A stretch of 64,000 bases of DNA from an uncultured OCS116 cluster bacterium. Its GTDB lineage: Bacteria > Pseudomonadota > Alphaproteobacteria > Rhizobiales > TMED25. The notes under the pieces are model-generated. The model ran no database searches and was not told the DNA's origin. It saw only the letters and a program-made list of their open reading frames with translations. Shown here piece after piece: positions 7,693 through 16,315 of this stretch. The position numbers and the translations under genes are program-made. The stretch covers positions 184,285-248,284 of the forward strand of contig CACBED010000001.1 in assembly GCA_902538185.1 (NCBI GenBank), in the 5' to 3' direction. Position 1 is the stretch's first letter; each line of letters opens with the position of its first letter.

Positions 7693-8754
7693 ATGTATAC
7701 AGCCTTAATAGTTTATTTGATTGCTGCAATAGGAATATCTTTTTTCTGTTCTATGCTCGAAGCTGCCCTTCTGAGTACTACACCTTCTTACACACAAGCG
7801 AAATTAAATGAGGGCACGCGAACAGGTAAGCTTCTTAACGAATTCAAAAATAATATTGATAAACCATTATCAGCAATTTTAACGCTAAATACGATTGCCA
7901 ATACATTTTGCGCGATTGGTGTTGGGAAAGAAGCGTCCAAACTTTGGCCAAACCATATCACGGTAACAGCCCTATTTGTCCCAATAGCGATGACCTTTGC
8001 AATCCTTGTCTTCTCAGAAATAACGCCAAAAACAATAGGAGCGAATAACTGGAAAAGACTTGCCCCTTTCACGGCAAAAAGTGTTCAGTTTCTTCTAATT
8101 TTACTTATGCCTGTAATTTGGTTTTTGCAGGTTTATACGAAAAAGTTCCTAATGAAAAATAATGATAATAAAGAGATCTTTTCAAGGGCCGATTTTCTAG
8201 CTATGGCCGATATAGGATCGAGCGAAGGAGAGCTAGATGAAGTTGAAAGCAAGCTTATTTATAACCTGCTTCATTTCAAAACTGTTCAAGTTAAAGATGT
8301 AATGACACCAAGATCTGTAATCGTATCAGAGCCAGCAGATATGTATGCGAACGAATTTTATGAGCTTCAAGAAGAGCTAATTTTTAGTCGAATTTTACTT
8401 GAAGAGAGCAAAGAGTCAGAAAATATCATTGGTTATGTTTTAAAAGACGAGGTCTTAGAGCACTTACTTGATGATGAAAATCATAAACAGCTGAAGGACT
8501 TCAAGAGAAATATTATCACAGTGCCAGAAACCCACAATATGCTAAAAATGTTCAATGATTTTATTAAAAACCACGAGCATATTGCTCTTGTCATTGACGA
8601 ATATAATGGGGTTGCTGGCATCATAACTATGGAAGATGTTATTGAGACAATATTGGGGGATGAGATTGTTGATGAGACTGATAAAGTGGCTGACTTGCAG
8701 GAATATGCTATTCAACAAGGTAAATCGATGTCTGATAACGTTAAAAAAGCATAA
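7693..8754 (+). CDS. CNNM/DUF21 transmembrane domain + CBS-pair protein (TlyC/CorC-like), no CorC_HlyC C-terminal domain evident
   Basis: The N-terminal SMLEAALLS...LTLNTIANT is the DUF21 signature. It is followed by a CBS-like VKDVMTPR...GIITMEDVIE pair. Confidence 0.75.
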   Translation: MYTALIVYLIAAIGISFFCSMLEAALLSTTPSYTQAKLNEGTRTGKLLNEFKNNIDKPLSAILTLNTIANTFCAIGVGKEASKLWPNHITVTALFVPIAMTFAILVFSEITPKTIGANNWKRLAPFTAKSVQFLLILLMPVIWFLQVYTKKFLMKNNDNKEIFSRADFLAMADIGSSEGELDEVESKLIYNLLHFKTVQVKDVMTPRSVIVSEPADMYANEFYELQEELIFSRILLEESKESENIIGYVLKDEVLEHLLDDENHKQLKDFKRNIITVPETHNMLKMFNDFIKNHEHIALVIDEYNGVAGIITMEDVIETILGDEIVDETDKVADLQEYAIQQGKSMSDNVKKA

Positions 8755-8761
8755 TCGCTTT

Positions 8762-9439
8762 TTATCTTAAAATTTTTCTTATAATTGGCCATGCATATCT
8801 CAAACTCAGAAAACTTGCCAGTGACCCAACAACATAGGTAAATGCAGCGGCGGTCAGGACCGTATTACAAGCCCTATGGTACTCACTCGGTATTTTCTCC
8901 TTAAGAATTGGTAGCGCCCTCTTATAGCTGGCATCAAATTCAACATCCAGAGTAATGAGATGTAAAACGACATTTATAATTATACTAAGCGCAACGAGGA
9001 CCCCAGCAATTTTAATGAGTGGTATCAAACCAGTTGCAATGATGGGCCCAATACCGATATACATTATACCGCCTGCAAGTCTTGATATCCACGTCGTACT
9101 TTTAATGATTTTTTGACGTCTTGATAAGGGCTCATATCCCTCTTTATCTTGAATGGCATGGCCAATCTCATGCGTTATAATCGATAGAGCAGTAAGGCTT
9201 TTACGGTTTAACCTATATTTTTTTATTCTGATTTTTTTTCTATCAGGGTCGTAATGGTCACCGATTTCTGTTGGCTCAATATCGACGTTTTTTATTTCAA
9301 AATCATTCAATATATCTTGGCCAAGCTCCTGCGCTGTAAATGGCATTCCATCGAGCTCATTATCATACTTATTAATGGTGTAGTGAAATACAAGAATAGG
9401 AAGTACGTAAATTGCAAGACCAATAAAAATGAAAGCCAT
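8762..9439 (-). CDS. membrane zinc metallopeptidase (YugP-like)
   Basis: It has an HEIGHAIQ zinc-binding motif, plus an N-terminal and two C-terminal hydrophobic helices. Confidence 0.7.
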   Translation of the reverse strand: MAFIFIGLAIYVLPILVFHYTINKYDNELDGMPFTAQELGQDILNDFEIKNVDIEPTEIGDHYDPDRKKIRIKKYRLNRKSLTALSIITHEIGHAIQDKEGYEPLSRRQKIIKSTTWISRLAGGIMYIGIGPIIATGLIPLIKIAGVLVALSIIINVVLHLITLDVEFDASYKRALPILKEKIPSEYHRACNTVLTAAAFTYVVGSLASFLSLRYAWPIIRKILR

Positions 9440-10087: not shown

Positions 10088-10116
10088 GGTTCATCCTATC
10101 ATTGCGTAATTTATTA

Positions 10117-10944
10117 TTATTCAAACAGATCGTTATGGGGTAATGGATAATTGGTAATTAATAGCTCTTTACCGACACCCGCATGAGCTTTTTTGATATT
10201 ATTCATTCCATACTGCAACTGCCATTCTTTTTGGTTAAAATCTTTGTATAGATTTGTAATAAATTCACAATTATCGTAGGTAATTAAAAATTGATGTTTA
10301 GTCTTGGATAATACTGCATGAAGACGCTCATGATCAAAGTCTATGTGAAGGTCACCATTTTTTCCGTAAAGTGCGGATTTACTTGCTGAAAAATAGGGGG
10401 GATCTATAAATAAAAATACATTATTTCCGCTCATTTTAATGATCTGCTCATAATCTTCTGAGTACAGTTTGAACTCTTTAATCACAGAATGTGACTGGCG
10501 TAATCTTTCGATAGATGTATGCGTAAACCTTTTCTGAAAGGACTCTTCTGAATAGCCGCCACTATCTGCAATACCTGAAAAAGTTATTCTATTTAAAATA
10601 AAAAAATCAATGCCGCGATCTAAAATTGTTAGATTTGAGTCTCTCCTTTCCATGACCTCCGCGTACAGCTTTTTACCATCTTTATAACTGTCACAAATAT
10701 TAATTAAGCGTAGACATAATTCATCTATATCCTCCTTAACTGAGTGCCATAGCGCATATAATTCATAATTCAAATCATTAGCAATTAGTTTTTTAACCTC
10801 AAAATCCTGTTGAATGTAAAAGCCAAAAGATCCCCCACCAAAAAAAGGCTCTCTATATTCTCTAAATTTTTCAGGAACAAAATCTCTAAGAAAGTTAATA
10901 GCTCTAGACTTTCCACCTGGGTATCTCAAGGGGCTCTTAATCAT
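10117..10944 (-). CDS. DNA N6-adenine methyltransferase, D12 class (Dam-like, alpha group)
   Basis: It has an N-terminal PLRYPGGKSR, the AdoMet motif I FFGGGS, and the catalytic motif IV DPPY (nt 10393-10404). The I-to-IV order indicates the alpha group. Confidence 0.85.
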   Translation of the reverse strand: MIKSPLRYPGGKSRAINFLRDFVPEKFREYREPFFGGGSFGFYIQQDFEVKKLIANDLNYELYALWHSVKEDIDELCLRLINICDSYKDGKKLYAEVMERRDSNLTILDRGIDFFILNRITFSGIADSGGYSEESFQKRFTHTSIERLRQSHSVIKEFKLYSEDYEQIIKMSGNNVFLFIDPPYFSASKSALYGKNGDLHIDFDHERLHAVLSKTKHQFLITYDNCEFITNLYKDFNQKEWQLQYGMNNIKKAHAGVGKELLITNYPLPHNDLFE

Positions 10945-11025
10945 TTCTCAAATTCGTTTAAAGTTATTGGTGCCTGAAGTGACATTATTTATCTTTTGTA
11001 TTTCTTTTTTTGTAGATGGGTTTCA

Positions 11026-11053
11026 TGGTATACTTTTTATACACAGTTTGACA
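11026..11053. promoter_or_regulatory. candidate overlapping divergent promoters between methyltransferase and helicase operon
   Basis: On the + strand there is an extended -10-like TGgTATACT (11026-11034), about 42 nt before the 11076 ATG. On the - strand there is TTGTCA-N16-TATACC (11053 to 11026), upstream of the methyltransferase gene. The two share the palindrome GTATAC (11028-11033). This is pattern only. Confidence 0.25.
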
Positions 11054-11075
11054 ATTTTTAATTACGAGTGATTTT

Positions 11076-13214
11076 ATGGCCCTTAGGGATTGTAAGTTTG
11101 AACGCACCTATAAAACCGATGAAGTCGGCAATGATGGTATGGGCCATTTCTACCAGGCTGCCCTAAAGAATTCAATTAAATGGAGAGCTGCATCGGGCTA
11201 TTTCACCTCATCATTTTTAGAACTCTTCAAAAAAGAAGTTCTGCAATTTGTAATAGATGGCGGTAAGATAGAATTAGTTTGCAGCCAAGTCCTAAAAGAA
11301 GATGATATAGAAAAGATAGAGAATGGCTATCTTTTGCGGTACAGCATTTACAATGAGATAATAGAAACTGTTTTACAGGAAATGATCGATAACGAAGATC
11401 ATAAGGATGCAATCGGGTTTCTTGCAACGCTCATTAAGTTCGAGAAACTTGATATAAAAATTAATTTTTACAAAGACAAGAATGGAATTATGCATATTAA
11501 AAGCGGCTATTTCTCTGACAAAAACAATAAAGATGCCGTTGCCTATAACGGTTCTGGAAATCTTACATATATGGGGGCTGGAGAAGAGGGAAATTTTGAA
11601 ACGCATGATGTATTTAATTCATGGGATGAGACCGATAGGTATCAAGATAAAAAAGAATTGGTTGATGAGTTATGGGAAAATAAAAGGAAAAATCATGAAG
11701 TGATTGATTTTCCTGAGGTTGCCAAGGATCGACTTAGGACCTATTCCAAAAATGATTTAGCAGAGCTAGATACGCCAAATATAAAGAAAAATAATTATAG
11801 TTCTGCATCCCAAAATAGTGATCCTGGGACGAAGGTTGCATTGAAAAAAAGTAAATTAGACAACCTATTTCCATATCAGGAAGAAACTATAGAAAATTGG
11901 TATAAAAATTCACAAAGAGGAATTATTAAGCATGCAACTGGCGTTGGCAAGACCATCACAGCATTAAAGATAGTTTATGATCATATGGAAAAAGGAAAGC
12001 CTGTGCTCATTATTGTTCCAACGGACCCACTGCAAGCTCAATGGCATAAAGAAATAAGAAATGAAATATCAAATGCTTCAGTCGTTCTCTGCGGTGGGAA
12101 GGGTAATAACAAATGGAAAAACATGAATTTCTATCATATGCTAAAAAGTACTGTAAATAACAATCCTGGGCTCATAATAATTAGCGTGGTTAAGACGGCC
12201 ACAGAAAATGAAACATTCCAAAACAAAATATCGAATAATTTATCAGATGCATTGCTCGTCGTCGACGAAGTGCATCACATTGCAACAAAAAATAGAATTA
12301 AAATTTTGGATTTTCAAGTCGAATCAAAGTTAGGGTTAAGTGCAACCCCTGACATATATAACGATGATGATAATTACTACAACAGAATAATTGATTATTT
12401 TGGAGGCATTATTGAACCAAAAATTGAATTAAAAGATGCGATTTGGAAATATGGTAGACTTTCTTTTTATGAGTATCATCCAAATTTTCTATATCTCACT
12501 GAGTCAGAGGAAGATGAATGGTTAAGCTATACAAAGAGAATAAAAAAACTCAGAGGGATAAAAAATAGTAGTAAAAGTGACTCCAATAAAATTGATCAGG
12601 ATATTAAATTGCTACTAATACAGAGGGCGAGGATAGTTAAAACGGCAGAAAATAAAGCCACAGTTATTCCTGAGATTTTGGAAAAGTATTATCTACCTGG
12701 ACAGTCTTGGCTCATTTATTGCCAAGAGGATACACAGTTATCTGAAGCAAAGAGATTAGTTGATGAATGCCAGATAGAATATATTTTTCAGTACACCTCA
12801 AAGAATATAGGTAATAGAGATGTCGAGCTAGATAATTTTAAAAATATGGGAGGGGTTCTGCTTGCAGTGAATTGTCTTGATGAAGGTATTGATATACCAC
12901 AAATCACGCACGCCATTATACTAGCTTCATCAAAGAATCCTCGACAGTTTGTTCAGAGAAGGGGCAGAGTATTAAGAAAGGGAGCCGGTAACAAAAGCAA
13001 TGCCCATATATACGACTGTTTCATTGAGCCAAAGGACAATTACGAAGACTTTGATGGAATTATGCGAAATGAGATGAAAAGAGCAGAGGAGATGGCAGAC
13101 GCAGCCACAAATAAAGACTCATCGTTGCTACTCATCAGAGAAAGACTTGATTTACTTATTGAAAATAGTATAGAATTCTCTGGTCTTTATGATGAGAATG
13201 AAGAAAATTACTAA
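11076..13214 (+). CDS. HKD (phospholipase-D family) nuclease domain fused to SF2 DEAD/DEAH-type (ResIII-like) helicase
   Basis: There is a single HKD motif, MHIKSGYFSD...NGSGNLT (nt 11493-11561). The helicase motifs are I HATGVGKT (11934-11954), II VVDEVHH (12264-12275), III LSATP and VI QRRGRVLR. Confidence 0.85.
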   Translation: MALRDCKFERTYKTDEVGNDGMGHFYQAALKNSIKWRAASGYFTSSFLELFKKEVLQFVIDGGKIELVCSQVLKEDDIEKIENGYLLRYSIYNEIIETVLQEMIDNEDHKDAIGFLATLIKFEKLDIKINFYKDKNGIMHIKSGYFSDKNNKDAVAYNGSGNLTYMGAGEEGNFETHDVFNSWDETDRYQDKKELVDELWENKRKNHEVIDFPEVAKDRLRTYSKNDLAELDTPNIKKNNYSSASQNSDPGTKVALKKSKLDNLFPYQEETIENWYKNSQRGIIKHATGVGKTITALKIVYDHMEKGKPVLIIVPTDPLQAQWHKEIRNEISNASVVLCGGKGNNKWKNMNFYHMLKSTVNNNPGLIIISVVKTATENETFQNKISNNLSDALLVVDEVHHIATKNRIKILDFQVESKLGLSATPDIYNDDDNYYNRIIDYFGGIIEPKIELKDAIWKYGRLSFYEYHPNFLYLTESEEDEWLSYTKRIKKLRGIKNSSKSDSNKIDQDIKLLLIQRARIVKTAENKATVIPEILEKYYLPGQSWLIYCQEDTQLSEAKRLVDECQIEYIFQYTSKNIGNRDVELDNFKNMGGVLLAVNCLDEGIDIPQITHAIILASSKNPRQFVQRRGRVLRKGAGNKSNAHIYDCFIEPKDNYEDFDGIMRNEMKRAEEMADAATNKDSSLLLIRERLDLLIENSIEFSGLYDENEENY

Positions 13215-13235
13215 TAAACTATAATTTTAGAACCC

Positions 13236-13436
13236 ATGACAAATCCGCAGAAAATTACAAGCGTTAGACTTCTCAAGGACTCACTGGAGAAATCAGATGA
13301 GTCTTCAGAGCTTCAAATAAATCATGATCTGCTTGAAAAATTATATGAGATGTTTGCGAATGAAACAACTTATCCTAATAAAAGTCCTATAAATGGACTT
13401 CAACGTATATTGGATACGCATAATGGAAATAAATGA
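13236..13436 (+). CDS. 66-aa acidic hypothetical micro-protein between helicase and ATPase genes
   Basis: The ORF starts 21 nt after the helicase stop. Its stop overlaps the ATPase ATG (13423) by 14 nt. There is no obvious Shine-Dalgarno sequence and no recognisable motif. Confidence 0.35.
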   Translation: MTNPQKITSVRLLKDSLEKSDESSELQINHDLLEKLYEMFANETTYPNKSPINGLQRILDTHNGNK

Positions 13437-15396
13437 AATCAAGCTCGAAAATTGGATGCCGTATTACGGCAAGCAATCTATTCAATTATCTCACGGAAAA
13501 GATAGAAATGTAAATATTGTACTTGCAAGAAACGGTAAAGGTAAAACATCTGTTATGTATGCTGTATTTTGGTGTTTATACGGTAAGGTTATGGATAACA
13601 GGACAAGAGAACAATTAGCCGAAAGTGAATATTTAAATTTTCGTGCTTTGGATGAGGGTGACCTTAGGTGCTCAGTTCAAATCATTTTCATGCATAAGGG
13701 GATAGAGTATGAGTTTACAAGAGCTGCTGATTATTCTGGGGGGGATGCAAAAACCACATTCTCAGCCCGCAGGGATCGAGCCAGTATTAGTAACACTGAT
13801 GCACAATCCGAAATTTTAAGGATAGTTCCAGAAAGAATGGCAAGGTTTTGGTTGCTTGATGCTAAGCTACTAGATGAATATTTCCAGCTTCTCGCCTCAA
13901 AGAGTCATGGGCAAGTCAAAGAATTTGAGAGAGATATTAAAAAAGCATTGGGCTTTGAAGTTTTTCAGACTGCGGAAAATCTGTTCGGTCAATATCATGG
14001 TAAGCTAAATTCCATGGTAAAAAATGACGCAGCTCAGGATAAAAGGAAAGTGAAACTAGTCGATGAACACAACATAGTAACAACTAAGATTAAAAATGCA
14101 GATGAAGAGATAAAAAACCTCGAGAAGATAATAGAAGACAATCAAGTTATAGTAGATCAGGTTAGTAATGCGATTAAAGATGTTCAGGAGCTTGCCGAAG
14201 CGAGTGCTAGTATAAAAGCAAATAAAATAAAAATTGATGAATGTGACAATAAAATAGAGGTATTGGAAGGCGAATTACGAAAATTGAATGATGGCTTGTG
14301 GTCATGTATCTTTGTTGAAGAAAGCAGGGATTTACAAAGTAAAACCCAAAATCGAATTAATCAAATCATGATGGAACAAAATAATTTCCGTGATATTGAA
14401 GCAAAAGTTGAAGTAATAAGAAATTCTTTAAATAATGAATGCTGTGAAATATGTAATTCGCCAGTTAGCCAATCAGCATCAGATTTTCTAAATAGGAAGC
14501 TTACAGAATTGGAGAGTAAAATCAATGTTCAGGATCAGGAAGATGAAAAACATTTTTTGAGAAATACACTAAATATACTAAAAGAAGCTGAAAAAGATGC
14601 TGACATGAAGGTCAAACAAAAGGTAATCGACATTTCAAATGATATTGGAAAGATACATACAGATAGAGTTGGTTACGAGACTCTTTACAATGAAGCGAAA
14701 GACAAAAGAAAAAATTATAACACCAATGATCTCTCCCTAGATCAGGAGATTAAGAAGTTAAAGACAGCCGAAAACATGATTGAGCGATCACAAACCGGTA
14801 TTAAGGATCAAAACGAAATCATAGAAAAGGCTAACGATAGGATTAAAGAGATAGAAGACACCGATTTATGGAAAGCGACTATTGAGAGCAGTGGTAATAA
14901 AAAAAAATTAGACCAATTAAATGCTCTAATATCAATCTTTAAATCTGCAAATAACGCCTATGTAAAGGAATTCGGTGAAGGTATTGAGGATACTGCAAAT
15001 GAGATATTTACAGAGATGTACACAGCAGAGACAGCAAAAAAGAAAATTAACCTGAACAGAAGATTTGGGCTAGATCTATACATTGGAAATAAAAAAATGC
15101 GTTATAGCACAGGAATGGCGGTTATGTCTCTACTCACTTTTTCATTGGCACTCAACAGATATCAAGAATTTGAGAGGCCAATGATTACCGATGAAATATT
15201 ATCTGATCTTGATGATGAACACAAAAGTAGCACCATTAAGTCACTTGCAAATTTATCTAGTCAGGTTCTGATATTTGCCCATAGCGGTACACAAATTGAA
15301 AACATTAAAGAATTGCTGCAGGATAGACTGGGTTATTACTACACAATTGATAATATAGACGAGCATTATAATTCTATCAAAAAAGAGCAGATTTGA
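13423..15396 (+). CDS. Rad50/SbcC/DndD-like SMC-type ABC ATPase with long coiled coil and central CxxC (zinc-hook-like)
   Basis: The N-terminal IKLENWMPYYG...LARNGKGKTS is a Walker A (13525-13548). About 340 aa of K/E/N/I-rich coiled-coil-like sequence follows, with CCEIC at its centre (14440-14454). The C-terminal part has the signature-like YSTGM, the Walker B PMITDE (15181-15195), the D-loop SDLD and the H-loop FAHS. I prefer the ATG at 13423 over the listed 13393 because the ABC N-terminal consensus begins there. Confidence 0.8.
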   Translation: MEINEIKLENWMPYYGKQSIQLSHGKDRNVNIVLARNGKGKTSVMYAVFWCLYGKVMDNRTREQLAESEYLNFRALDEGDLRCSVQIIFMHKGIEYEFTRAADYSGGDAKTTFSARRDRASISNTDAQSEILRIVPERMARFWLLDAKLLDEYFQLLASKSHGQVKEFERDIKKALGFEVFQTAENLFGQYHGKLNSMVKNDAAQDKRKVKLVDEHNIVTTKIKNADEEIKNLEKIIEDNQVIVDQVSNAIKDVQELAEASASIKANKIKIDECDNKIEVLEGELRKLNDGLWSCIFVEESRDLQSKTQNRINQIMMEQNNFRDIEAKVEVIRNSLNNECCEICNSPVSQSASDFLNRKLTELESKINVQDQEDEKHFLRNTLNILKEAEKDADMKVKQKVIDISNDIGKIHTDRVGYETLYNEAKDKRKNYNTNDLSLDQEIKKLKTAENMIERSQTGIKDQNEIIEKANDRIKEIEDTDLWKATIESSGNKKKLDQLNALISIFKSANNAYVKEFGEGIEDTANEIFTEMYTAETAKKKINLNRRFGLDLYIGNKKMRYSTGMAVMSLLTFSLALNRYQEFERPMITDEILSDLDDEHKSSTIKSLANLSSQVLIFAHSGTQIENIKELLQDRLGYYYTIDNIDEHYNSIKKEQI

Positions 15397-15779
15397 TGTA
15401 CTTTAATTTTGAAAAATTTAAAAGATTTGGATTTGATGAGGCCGAAGACGTTATCGTTAAAAAATGGGTTGAGAACAAAATATTTAGTGATGAAAAGTAT
15501 GCTTTTCAGCTTGCATTAGCATTAGCTAATAAACTTCATTTAAAGCCTCAAATTATGAAAAGATTTAAGCAGAAATATGCACCGGGCACTGTGGATTCTG
15601 TTACTGCACTTTGTGAGTTGACAGCAAATAATTACGCTAAAGAATATCCTGATAAATGCGCGCAAGATACCATACATGTACTGGCGTCAATGCTTGCTTC
15701 TGCGGGAGTGAGATATATAGATGAAAATATTATATTAGATGGACAAAATATTGATATAGAAAAGTTGTTCCAAAATTAA
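15396..15779 (+). CDS. 127-aa hypothetical protein, last gene of the helicase/ATPase operon
   Basis: Its ATG overlaps the ATPase stop as TGATG. It looks helical and has no motif I can name. Its size and position resemble dndE after dndD, but homology is unverified. Confidence 0.55.
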   Translation: MYFNFEKFKRFGFDEAEDVIVKKWVENKIFSDEKYAFQLALALANKLHLKPQIMKRFKQKYAPGTVDSVTALCELTANNYAKEYPDKCAQDTIHVLASMLASAGVRYIDENIILDGQNIDIEKLFQN

Positions 15780-15817
15780 AGTATTCATTAGAGATATCAT
15801 TTTTTTCAGGAAATTTA

Positions 15818-16306
15818 TTATTCAAATTTAGATTTATATTTCTGAACGATATATTGTATGTCGTCATTCCATTCTATTACAGCTTTCTCCATGCCTCTGA
15901 AATTTCTATTCTTATCGAGGAAACCAATTATTGTTCTCAATAATTTGTTATAGCGCTTTTTAGAATTTGGCTCTCCCCACTCTTGCATATATGCGCCTCC
16001 GCCGATAAAAGGAAGTTGCTGAGTCATTACTTCATCAATAATATATCGCCTGCTTTTCTCTGGTGCACCCATATTTCCAACATTATAACCCATAAGGGAT
16101 AGCAAGCCTTTCTCTGGACGCAAAGCTTTTTTATGGGGGAACTTCATTGCAATTTCTGATCTCCTGGCCCATTCAGATCTTATTATGATAATTTGCTCTT
16201 CGGCTTGTGCTTTCACAGTTGGTTTCTCAAGATATTTAATTGCATTTTCGTATAACCGGAAAATCTCAATATCATTTAATTTCTTAATTTTATCAGCTGA
16301 GATCAT
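15818..16306 (-). CDS. 162-aa basic hypothetical protein, convergent with the operon
   Basis: This is a clean ORF filling the gap between the operon end and the ThDP-enzyme gene. It is K/R-rich and I recognise no family. Confidence 0.5.
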   Translation of the reverse strand: MISADKIKKLNDIEIFRLYENAIKYLEKPTVKAQAEEQIIIIRSEWARRSEIAMKFPHKKALRPEKGLLSLMGYNVGNMGAPEKSRRYIIDEVMTQQLPFIGGGAYMQEWGEPNSKKRYNKLLRTIIGFLDKNRNFRGMEKAVIEWNDDIQYIVQKYKSKFE

Positions 16307-16315
16307 GGGTTTAAG

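Follow-up and report, generated by a model that had tools for sequence, protein, structure and literature searches.

PbeABCD was defined in haloarchaea as a cassette of four genes adjoining dndCDEA (Xiong et al. 2019, PMC6459918). In Haloterrigena jeotgali A29 the combined DndCDEA-PbeABCD system protects about 10^4-fold against the virus SNJ1; all four pbe genes are needed, and activity is lost without phosphorothioate (PT) modification (PMC6459918). The four proteins were later re-annotated by the Aravind group as an HKD endoDNase fused to a superfamily 2 (SF2) helicase (PbeA), a rapidly evolving small protein (PbeB), a "CxC" zinc-hook ABC ATPase that is sister to DndD (PbeC) and a DndE cognate (PbeD), and methylase-linked versions as well as HKD-mediated cleavage were predicted (PMC10853773). 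The methylase partners described by Rakesh et al. (2024) are C5 and circularly permuted N4 cytosine enzymes, often accompanied by MTaX1 (PMC10853773). Xiong et al. had listed 320 PbeAC pairs that lack dnd genes, 155 of them with DNA methyltransferases (MTases) no more than 10 kb away (PMC6459918); their supplementary tables do not state the MTase classes. Here we analysed a six-gene locus in 64,000 nucleotides (nt) of contig CACBED010000001.1 from an uncultured OCS116 cluster bacterium; this whole stretch is called the window below. We think it fairly likely that the locus is an island carrying a PbeABCD-type restriction module that is paired with an MTase in place of the DndCDEA phosphorothioation genes.

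The locus lies between a LysE gene and a thiamine diphosphate (ThDP)-enzyme gene. A first-pass annotation, made from the DNA letters and their open reading frames (ORFs), had laid out six ORFs here, and its coordinates, strands, spacing, overlaps and flanks all match the sequence. The features are as follows (protein lengths in amino acids, aa):

10117-10944, minus strand: alpha-class D12-fold DNA MTase, 275 aa, divergent from pbeA.
10945-11075, no strand: intergenic region between the MTase gene and pbeA, 131 nt, presumed promoters.
11076-13214, plus strand: PbeA, HKD and SF2 helicase protein, 712 aa, identified by PADLOC, Pfam and conserved residues.
13236-13436, plus strand: small acidic protein in the PbeB position, 66 aa, placed by position and size.
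13423-15396, plus strand: PbeC, zinc-hook ABC ATPase, 657 aa, ATG at 13423, identified by PADLOC and conserved residues.
15396-15779, plus strand: PbeD, small partner of the ATPase, 127 aa, ATG at 15396, identified by a profile-profile match to a PbeD family.
15818-16306, minus strand: convergent basic protein, 162 aa, pI 9.6, island cargo.
10088-16315, no strand: inserted island of 6.2 kb with six genes, defined by empty-site contigs.

The 66-aa ORF starts 21 nt past the pbeA stop, the pbeC ATG lies inside the 3' end of this ORF with an overlap of 14 nt, and the pbeC stop and the start of the 127-aa ORF share TGATG; pbeABCD is a translationally coupled operon.

The 712-aa protein matches PbeA over nearly its whole length (PADLOC PDLC02707, E 3e-176; residues 3-682 against model positions 2-667 of 672). 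Its N-terminus is a single-HKD nuclease domain of the PLD family, fused to an SF2 DExH helicase/translocase. In Pfam, ResIII and Helicase_C pass and PLDc_2 is weak, and the NCBIfam model TIGR04095, "DNA phosphorothioation system restriction enzyme", gives 318 bits, which is under its cut-off. Across 40 homologues the HKD residues H140, K142, G159, S160 and N162 are invariant, as are the helicase motifs I (GxGKT, 289-293), II (DEVH, 397-400, with D397, E398 and H400), III (SAT, 422-424) and VI (QRRGR, 627-631). The 657-aa ATPase was assigned to PbeC over its full length (PADLOC, E 5e-58), with DndD as the next-best family (E 2e-25), and matches AAA_23 in Pfam. All 74 of its homologues keep the hook cysteines C341 and C344, and the Walker A residues G40-K41-T42, the signature S562xG564 and the Walker B residue D590 are conserved among the same proteins. 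PADLOC and Pfam thus bear out the domain calls of the first-pass annotation (D12-fold MTase, HKD::SF2 helicase and zinc-hook Rad50/DndD-like ATPase), and the motifs that it quoted for these proteins are present at conserved positions, in the 40 and 74 homologues and in Pfam MethyltransfD12. The ratio dN/dS between strains is 0.08-0.27, and the island genes are under purifying selection.

The 66-, 127- and 162-aa proteins had no direct match in Pfam, PADLOC, NCBIfam or PDB, even at E <= 10. For the 66-aa protein, gene order is informative: in 71 of 74 loci the space between pbeA and pbeC holds an ORF of 40 aa or more (median 67 aa), and by position and size the 66-aa ORF occupies the PbeB slot. 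It is 62% identical to its counterpart in L001, a more distant relative with the island at the same LysE site (PbeA 74% identity), and 27% identical to that in L002, and its profile similarity to the main PbeB cluster is too weak to demonstrate homology (hhalign probability 12.6%, E 0.002). A word-indexed homologue search with the 127-aa protein retrieved only itself, and its single detectable close relative is in L001 (51% identity). The profile of these two sequences matched the PbeD-position family of 35 loci with an hhalign probability of 96.6% (E 6e-10, 115 columns). That family in turn matched a second PbeD family (91.9%) and, weakly, Pfam-verified DndE (38%, E 3e-4), and a profile of 37 PbeD-like proteins found no DndE match in PDB. 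On the strength of the profile match we accept the 127-aa protein as PbeD; its kinship with DndE rests on the literature. Single-sequence AlphaFold2 models were poor (pLDDT 51.5 for the 162-aa protein and 55.6 for the 127-aa protein), and Foldseek with the poor PbeD model returned nothing meaningful (best E 2.5).

Because PADLOC recognises PbeA and PbeC, PbeD is supported by homology and PbeB by position and size, the four-gene operon is, judged by these matches, PbeABCD, alias the "CxC ABC ATPase-DndE" system. The first-pass annotation had presented the locus as an undescribed system. This does not hold, since PADLOC gives PbeA and PbeC, the Dnd-linked form has been characterised (PMC6459918) and methylase-linked versions have been described (PMC10853773). 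It had also dismissed the Dnd family for the absence of DndC and DndA, yet the restriction partner of that family, Pbe, is present. The PADLOC search that it proposed was informative in part: PbeA, PbeC and MTase_II were assigned, and the small proteins match no model, the window PbeB and PbeD being too diverged for the PADLOC models. What the family assignment upholds is its general logic of a modification enzyme combined with a nuclease/translocase and an ABC ATPase.

Compared with DndCDEA-PbeABCD of H. jeotgali A29, the window has the same gene order and sizes (PbeA, a 66-aa PbeB, a PbeC of about 650 aa and a small PbeD; PbeB and PbeD of H. jeotgali have 66 and 152 aa, PMC6459918). It differs in having an S-adenosylmethionine-dependent DNA MTase and no DndCDEA, and in its host, a marine alphaproteobacterium. 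The CxC ABC ATPase-DndE systems with methylases (Krishnan 2020 / Rakesh 2024, PMC10853773) share the components of the window (an HKD::SF2 protein, a small disordered protein, a zinc-hook ABC ATPase, a DndE-like partner and a linked DNA methylase) and likewise have no PT genes, but the window MTase is an alpha-class D12 enzyme, is encoded divergently, and comes without an MTaX1-like or ~876-aa (large helix-turn-helix, HTH) partner. Where sequence can test them, the locus shows the hallmarks of the PbeABCD / CxC-DndE family, for PbeB by position and size, and not the hallmarks of Hma, DISARM, type I/III or canonical Dnd systems.

Canonical Dnd (DndABCDE-FGH) was rejected: profiles built from the survey loci described below found no DndC, DndE, DndB or DndA in the 64-kb window, and the DndD profile found only PbeC. 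Like the window, type I and type III systems join an SF2 translocase to a nuclease, in one protein or as a pair, and DNA methylation controls the machinery, as is predicted for the window. They were rejected for lack of HsdS/HsdM or Mod, and matches to Res and EcoAI are weak and confined to the helicase core. DISARM likewise shares a PLD nuclease and a helicase; no DrmA or DrmB (DUF1998) is present, and matches to DrmD are weak, restricted to the helicase core and have E 1e-5 or worse. A zinc-hook ABC ATPase together with a DndE-like protein sets the Dnd/Pbe lineage apart from all of these. Hma, to which the first-pass annotation had likened the locus, consists of the helicase HmaA, the 5-methylcytosine (m5C) methylase HmaB and the DUF499 ATPase HmaC and is related to BREX (PMC8565338, PMC12839542). 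It resembles the window only in the three-word description helicase, methylase, ATPase: the composition with m5C and DUF499 differs, and the window ATPase is of the ABC type with a zinc hook. No Hma model occurs in the complete PADLOC lists for the helicase and the methylase, nor among the best 25 of 43 matches for the ATPase, and we dropped the comparison.

The modification gene and the restriction genes arrived together. In eight Tara contigs of close relatives (L083-L090, positions 7975-8001) the site is empty, the ThDP-enzyme gene being followed by LysE 25 nt later. Homology to these contigs breaks off where LysE begins and where the ThDP-enzyme gene stops. All 6.2 kb in between, with the 162-aa gene, are therefore an insertion. 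Its G+C content is 0.33-0.35 as compared with 0.38-0.44 in the flanks, and in clusters at 90% identity the island genes have 1-5 members versus 42-375 for the eight flanking genes looked up. A repeat search found no terminal repeats or target-site duplication at the island ends, and there is no integrase or mobility gene. We read the block as a horizontally acquired, strain-specific island. As the MTase gene lies within the same insertion as pbeABCD, 131 nt upstream and divergent, we regard it as a linked modification module, and a functional link between the two is predicted.

The LysE/ThDP site varies among strains: it is empty, holds the window island, or holds the L001 version with two other genes. 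One of these encodes an unannotated 448-aa protein between LysE and the MTase (L001 1226-2572, plus strand). The other (8501-9310, minus strand) replaces the 162-aa gene and encodes a PD-(D/E)XK nuclease (PDDEXK_1) with a Cas4-like cysteine pattern, which suggests a variable accessory-effector slot in the island.

We asked which base the MTase might modify. The enzyme belongs to Pfam MethyltransfD12 (PF02086, E 3e-38), carries the FxGxG and DPPY motifs and matches the PADLOC type II model MTase_II (E 1e-105). Its best relative in PDB is M.CbeI (7M6B; E 1.6e-80, 47% identity over the full length), and it is much farther from DpnM (E 8e-16) and E. coli Dam (E 4e-5). It passes the broad "dam" subfamily model TIGR00571 by about one bit (116 versus 114.85 bits) and fails the Dam equivalog NF008152 (35.6 bits against a cut-off of 441). 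M.CbeI of Caldicellulosiruptor bescii is an alpha-class enzyme with a DPPY motif and was at first annotated as an adenine methylase; experiments showed that it makes N4-methylcytosine (m4C) in GGCC (PMC3425538, PMC8616854). DmtB is 57% identical to M.CbeI and has the same specificity, the mark of both enzymes being m4C at the inner C of GGCC (PMC3425538, PMC8616854). The window MTase is like M.CbeI and DmtB in full-length similarity, FxGxG and DPPY motifs and D12 fold. The settings differ: M.CbeI works in a type II system alongside the endonuclease CbeI (PMC3425538), whereas the window MTase adjoins the Pbe operon.

Because the nearest characterised relative is an m4C enzyme with DPPY, the label "Dam-like, N6-methyladenine (m6A)" given by the first-pass annotation is doubtful. 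The D12 fold and the DPPY motif stand; the Dam-like assignment and m6A are unsafe, with M.CbeI as the nearest relative and the Dam equivalog failing, and the case illustrates that "Dam-like" from motifs alone can mislead. The product is most likely m4C at GGCC, which is a better guess than m6A at another motif. Tetramer counts in the host DNA of the window lean the same way, though as weak evidence: the observed/expected ratio of GGCC is 0.78, the second lowest of the 16 palindromic tetramers, and GATC is not depleted (0.96).

We then compared Pbe loci and their modification partners across genomes, taking one genome per GTDB species; this gave 80 PbeA loci (L003-L082) from many phyla and archaea, whose neighbouring ORFs were called and clustered, with the cluster representatives annotated. 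The order PbeA, ~65-aa protein, PbeC, ~125-155-aa protein is nearly universal in these 80 unrelated genomes, and the order MTase-PbeA-B-C-D is present in two related metagenome contigs; the block is more than an accident of gene order. Methylases of PF01555 (N6_N4) adjoin PbeA in 32 of the 80 loci; most of them immediately precede it in the same orientation, and two copies are frequent. An M.CbeI-like D12 MTase occurs in one locus, that of Rhodoluna (L038), where its end overlaps the pbeA start, and weak D12-like proteins occur in three. Altogether a methylase is found in 36 loci, whereas 21 carry dnd genes (DndC, D, E, B or A); no locus has both, and 24 have neither within the flanks. This mutual exclusion fits alternative marking modules. 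Methylase-linked Pbe is common, and the D12 partner is a rare feature. The MTase family of the window abuts pbeA in at least three settings: divergently in the window, L001 and L002, and co-directionally in Rhodoluna L038 and in the metagenome contig L100. A first metagenome scan with the single MTase sequence had found nothing. PbeA relatives numbered 1387 at E <= 1e-20 among the 8000 candidates scored, and by this count Pbe systems are widespread.

The survey loci also showed other neighbours. GmrSD, Uma2 and a DndH-like HerA protein lie near some dnd-linked Pbe loci. Directly downstream of pbeD in 18 of the 80 genomes is a protein of ~820-1060 aa with RNA_pol_A_CTD (HhH) and Sigma70_r4 (HTH) domains (L003-L016, L021, L025, L034, L042 and L045; for example L007:7082-9712), with or without PF01555. 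It may be the MTaX1-type partner of the literature and is absent from the window.

A sister island shows how these genes are exchanged between strains. It is represented by L002 and L092, contigs of one sample (L002:994-4859 and L092:828-1689, compared with window 11076-15779). Its MTase is 96% identical to that of the window, and its 162-aa protein 99%; on the right, the DNA ceases to align exactly at the end of the 162-aa gene. Within PbeA, identity is 98% over residues 1-125 (HKD domain), falls to 76-90% over residues 126-300 and is about 50% in the helicase region beyond ~300, which places a recombination breakpoint within pbeA. Further downstream, PbeB is 27%, PbeC 27-40% and PbeD 28% identical. 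The frame is near-identical and the middle diverged; therefore the helicase domain and PbeB, C and D were exchanged as one cassette, a sign that these four parts may co-adapt physically.

The 162-aa protein adjoins pbeD in the window, L091 and L092. A word-indexed search with it retrieved only itself, and its family emerged only from an exhaustive search (1169 representative proteins at E <= 1e-3). The family has a C-terminal core of ~100 residues with invariant G67, Y74, G77, R86, W110, R118 and D149, which can stand by itself or follow WYL, zinc-ribbon or DUF3553 domains. The family has no match in Pfam, NCBIfam or PDB, and this may be an undescribed domain family. Its relatives sit in contexts unrelated to Pbe, and when the other 82 loci were searched with a family profile, the 10 kb around PbeA held no member. 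The first-pass annotation had counted the gene as part of the system; it does lie within the inserted island, yet no family member is near PbeA in those 82 loci. We rejected the protein as a core Pbe component or as a restriction endonuclease, given that it has no nuclease motif or match and that its relatives are unlinked to Pbe. It is cargo in a variable slot downstream of pbeD and no conserved Pbe component.

The promoter role of the intergenic region 10945-11075 is presumed, and in a promoter and terminator scan sites were no more frequent than in shuffled sequence. The ~60 nt adjoining pbeA (11020-11075) are better conserved between the window and the 73%-identical L001 than the rest of this region. 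Both GGTATAC...TATACA and a TTGACA box fall in this stretch, a possible regulatory site common to the two.

From the parts list, the catalytic residues, the coupling of the genes, their acquisition as one block and the selection on them we infer the following mechanism. The M.CbeI-like MTase would mark host DNA, most likely as m4C in GGCC and less likely as m6A elsewhere. PbeC would dimerise via its zinc hook and, together with PbeD, load on and scan DNA; on DNA without the mark the PbeC-PbeD complex would engage PbeA. The SF2 motor of PbeA would translocate along the DNA, and PbeA would then nick or cut it, or the stalled complex would block replication. With just one HKD motif per PbeA, a second copy would be required to form the active site for cutting. 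PbeB may be a fast-evolving regulator or a sensor of phage proteins, and the 162-aa gene is probably unrelated or accessory cargo. By analogy with H. jeotgali, modification-dependent virus protection by the window locus is predicted.

Several points weigh against a PbeABCD module guided by its neighbouring MTase. In the sole experimental Pbe system viral DNA was not visibly cleaved (PMC6459918), and our literature search found no experiment on methylase-linked Pbe. The base and motif assigned to the MTase come from its 47% identity to M.CbeI, and the depletion of GGCC is only mild (observed/expected 0.78). The absence of dnd genes covers the 64-kb window, and dnd genes elsewhere in the genome are possible. 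Among 80 metagenome loci with M.CbeI-like MTases, in 49 of which the flank on one side reaches 2.5 kb or more, only L100 adjoins PbeA and PbeC, so the MTase could be an independent neighbour of Pbe. Finally, the MTase is kept at 96% identity between the sister islands while PbeBCD are at 27-40%, which is awkward if PbeCD reads the specific mark of this MTase.

In the main alternative, which we judge rather unlikely, Pbe works without the MTase. Infection would trigger an abortive or suicide response, with PbeB restraining the HKD nuclease until a phage factor displaces it, and the MTase would be an orphan or a leftover of another restriction-modification (R-M) system. Such a mode has already been proposed for CxC systems (PMC10853773). 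It would account for the 24 of 80 Pbe loci without a detectable MTase or dnd gene in the flanks, for the many M.CbeI-like MTases that are unlinked to Pbe, for a helicase-PbeBCD cassette that is exchanged beside a constant MTase, and for the fast evolution of PbeB (27-62% identity among close strains). Against it, no Pbe locus combines MTase and dnd genes, and 57 of 80 have one or the other. The same MTase family directly adjoins pbeA in independent lineages and orientations, and in the window it lies inside the same inserted block. Moreover, the activity of the tested system required DNA modification (PMC6459918).

That requirement can be turned round: PbeABCD was inactive without PT modification (PMC6459918), and with no DndC, DndE, DndB or DndA-like gene in the 64-kb window the module might be inert without a phosphorothioation partner, which is possibility 1 of Xiong et al., or might depend on dnd genes elsewhere in the genome. 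We consider this improbable. The ORFs are intact, the catalytic residues conserved and dN/dS is well below 1; the module is kept, and even exchanged, among strains together with the MTase; and an inert 6-kb insert is unlikely to persist in an apparently ~1.4-Mb streamlined marine genome (a size inferred from cluster mates). Least credible of all is that the MTase and the 162-aa protein (in L001, the PD-(D/E)XK protein) form a separate type II R-M pair flanking an unrelated Pbe operon. M.CbeI itself comes from a type II system (PMC3425538), and both genes bracket the operon and stay at 96-99% while the middle is swapped. Against this reading, neither a motif nor a match marks the 162-aa family as a nuclease; its many members, some joined to WYL or zinc-ribbon domains, lie among housekeeping or unannotated genes with no tie to Pbe or R-M; and the gene is absent from L001, L038 and L100, all of which keep the MTase-Pbe pairing.

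The methylase-linked arrangement was already catalogued by comparative genomics; the window departs from the described versions in the class and orientation of the MTase and in having no MTaX1 or large HTH partner. The locus adds an instance and a partner class and no new principle, its practical value is modest, and its interest lies mainly in the compact test case and the cassette-swap observation. The sole tested Pbe system is phosphorothioate-linked and archaeal, and its mechanism is disputed, with a replication block without cleavage on one side and HKD-mediated cleavage on the other. A small bacterial methylase-linked version would allow one to test if Pbe reads base methylation and if the HKD site is needed, and m4C in GGCC, the likely product of the MTase, is easily assayed with HaeIII or by sequencing.

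The swapped cassette beside the kept MTase and HKD domain points to helicase-PbeBCD as an interchangeable sensor/motor module. We tentatively advance the possibility that Pbe is indifferent to the kind of mark. Base methylation, probably m4C at GGCC, would here replace phosphorothioate, and discrimination would be nuclease-proximal or indirect. If this is true, the island would offer a compact, clonable model of how one SMC-like/DndE-like scanner couples to unrelated DNA marks.

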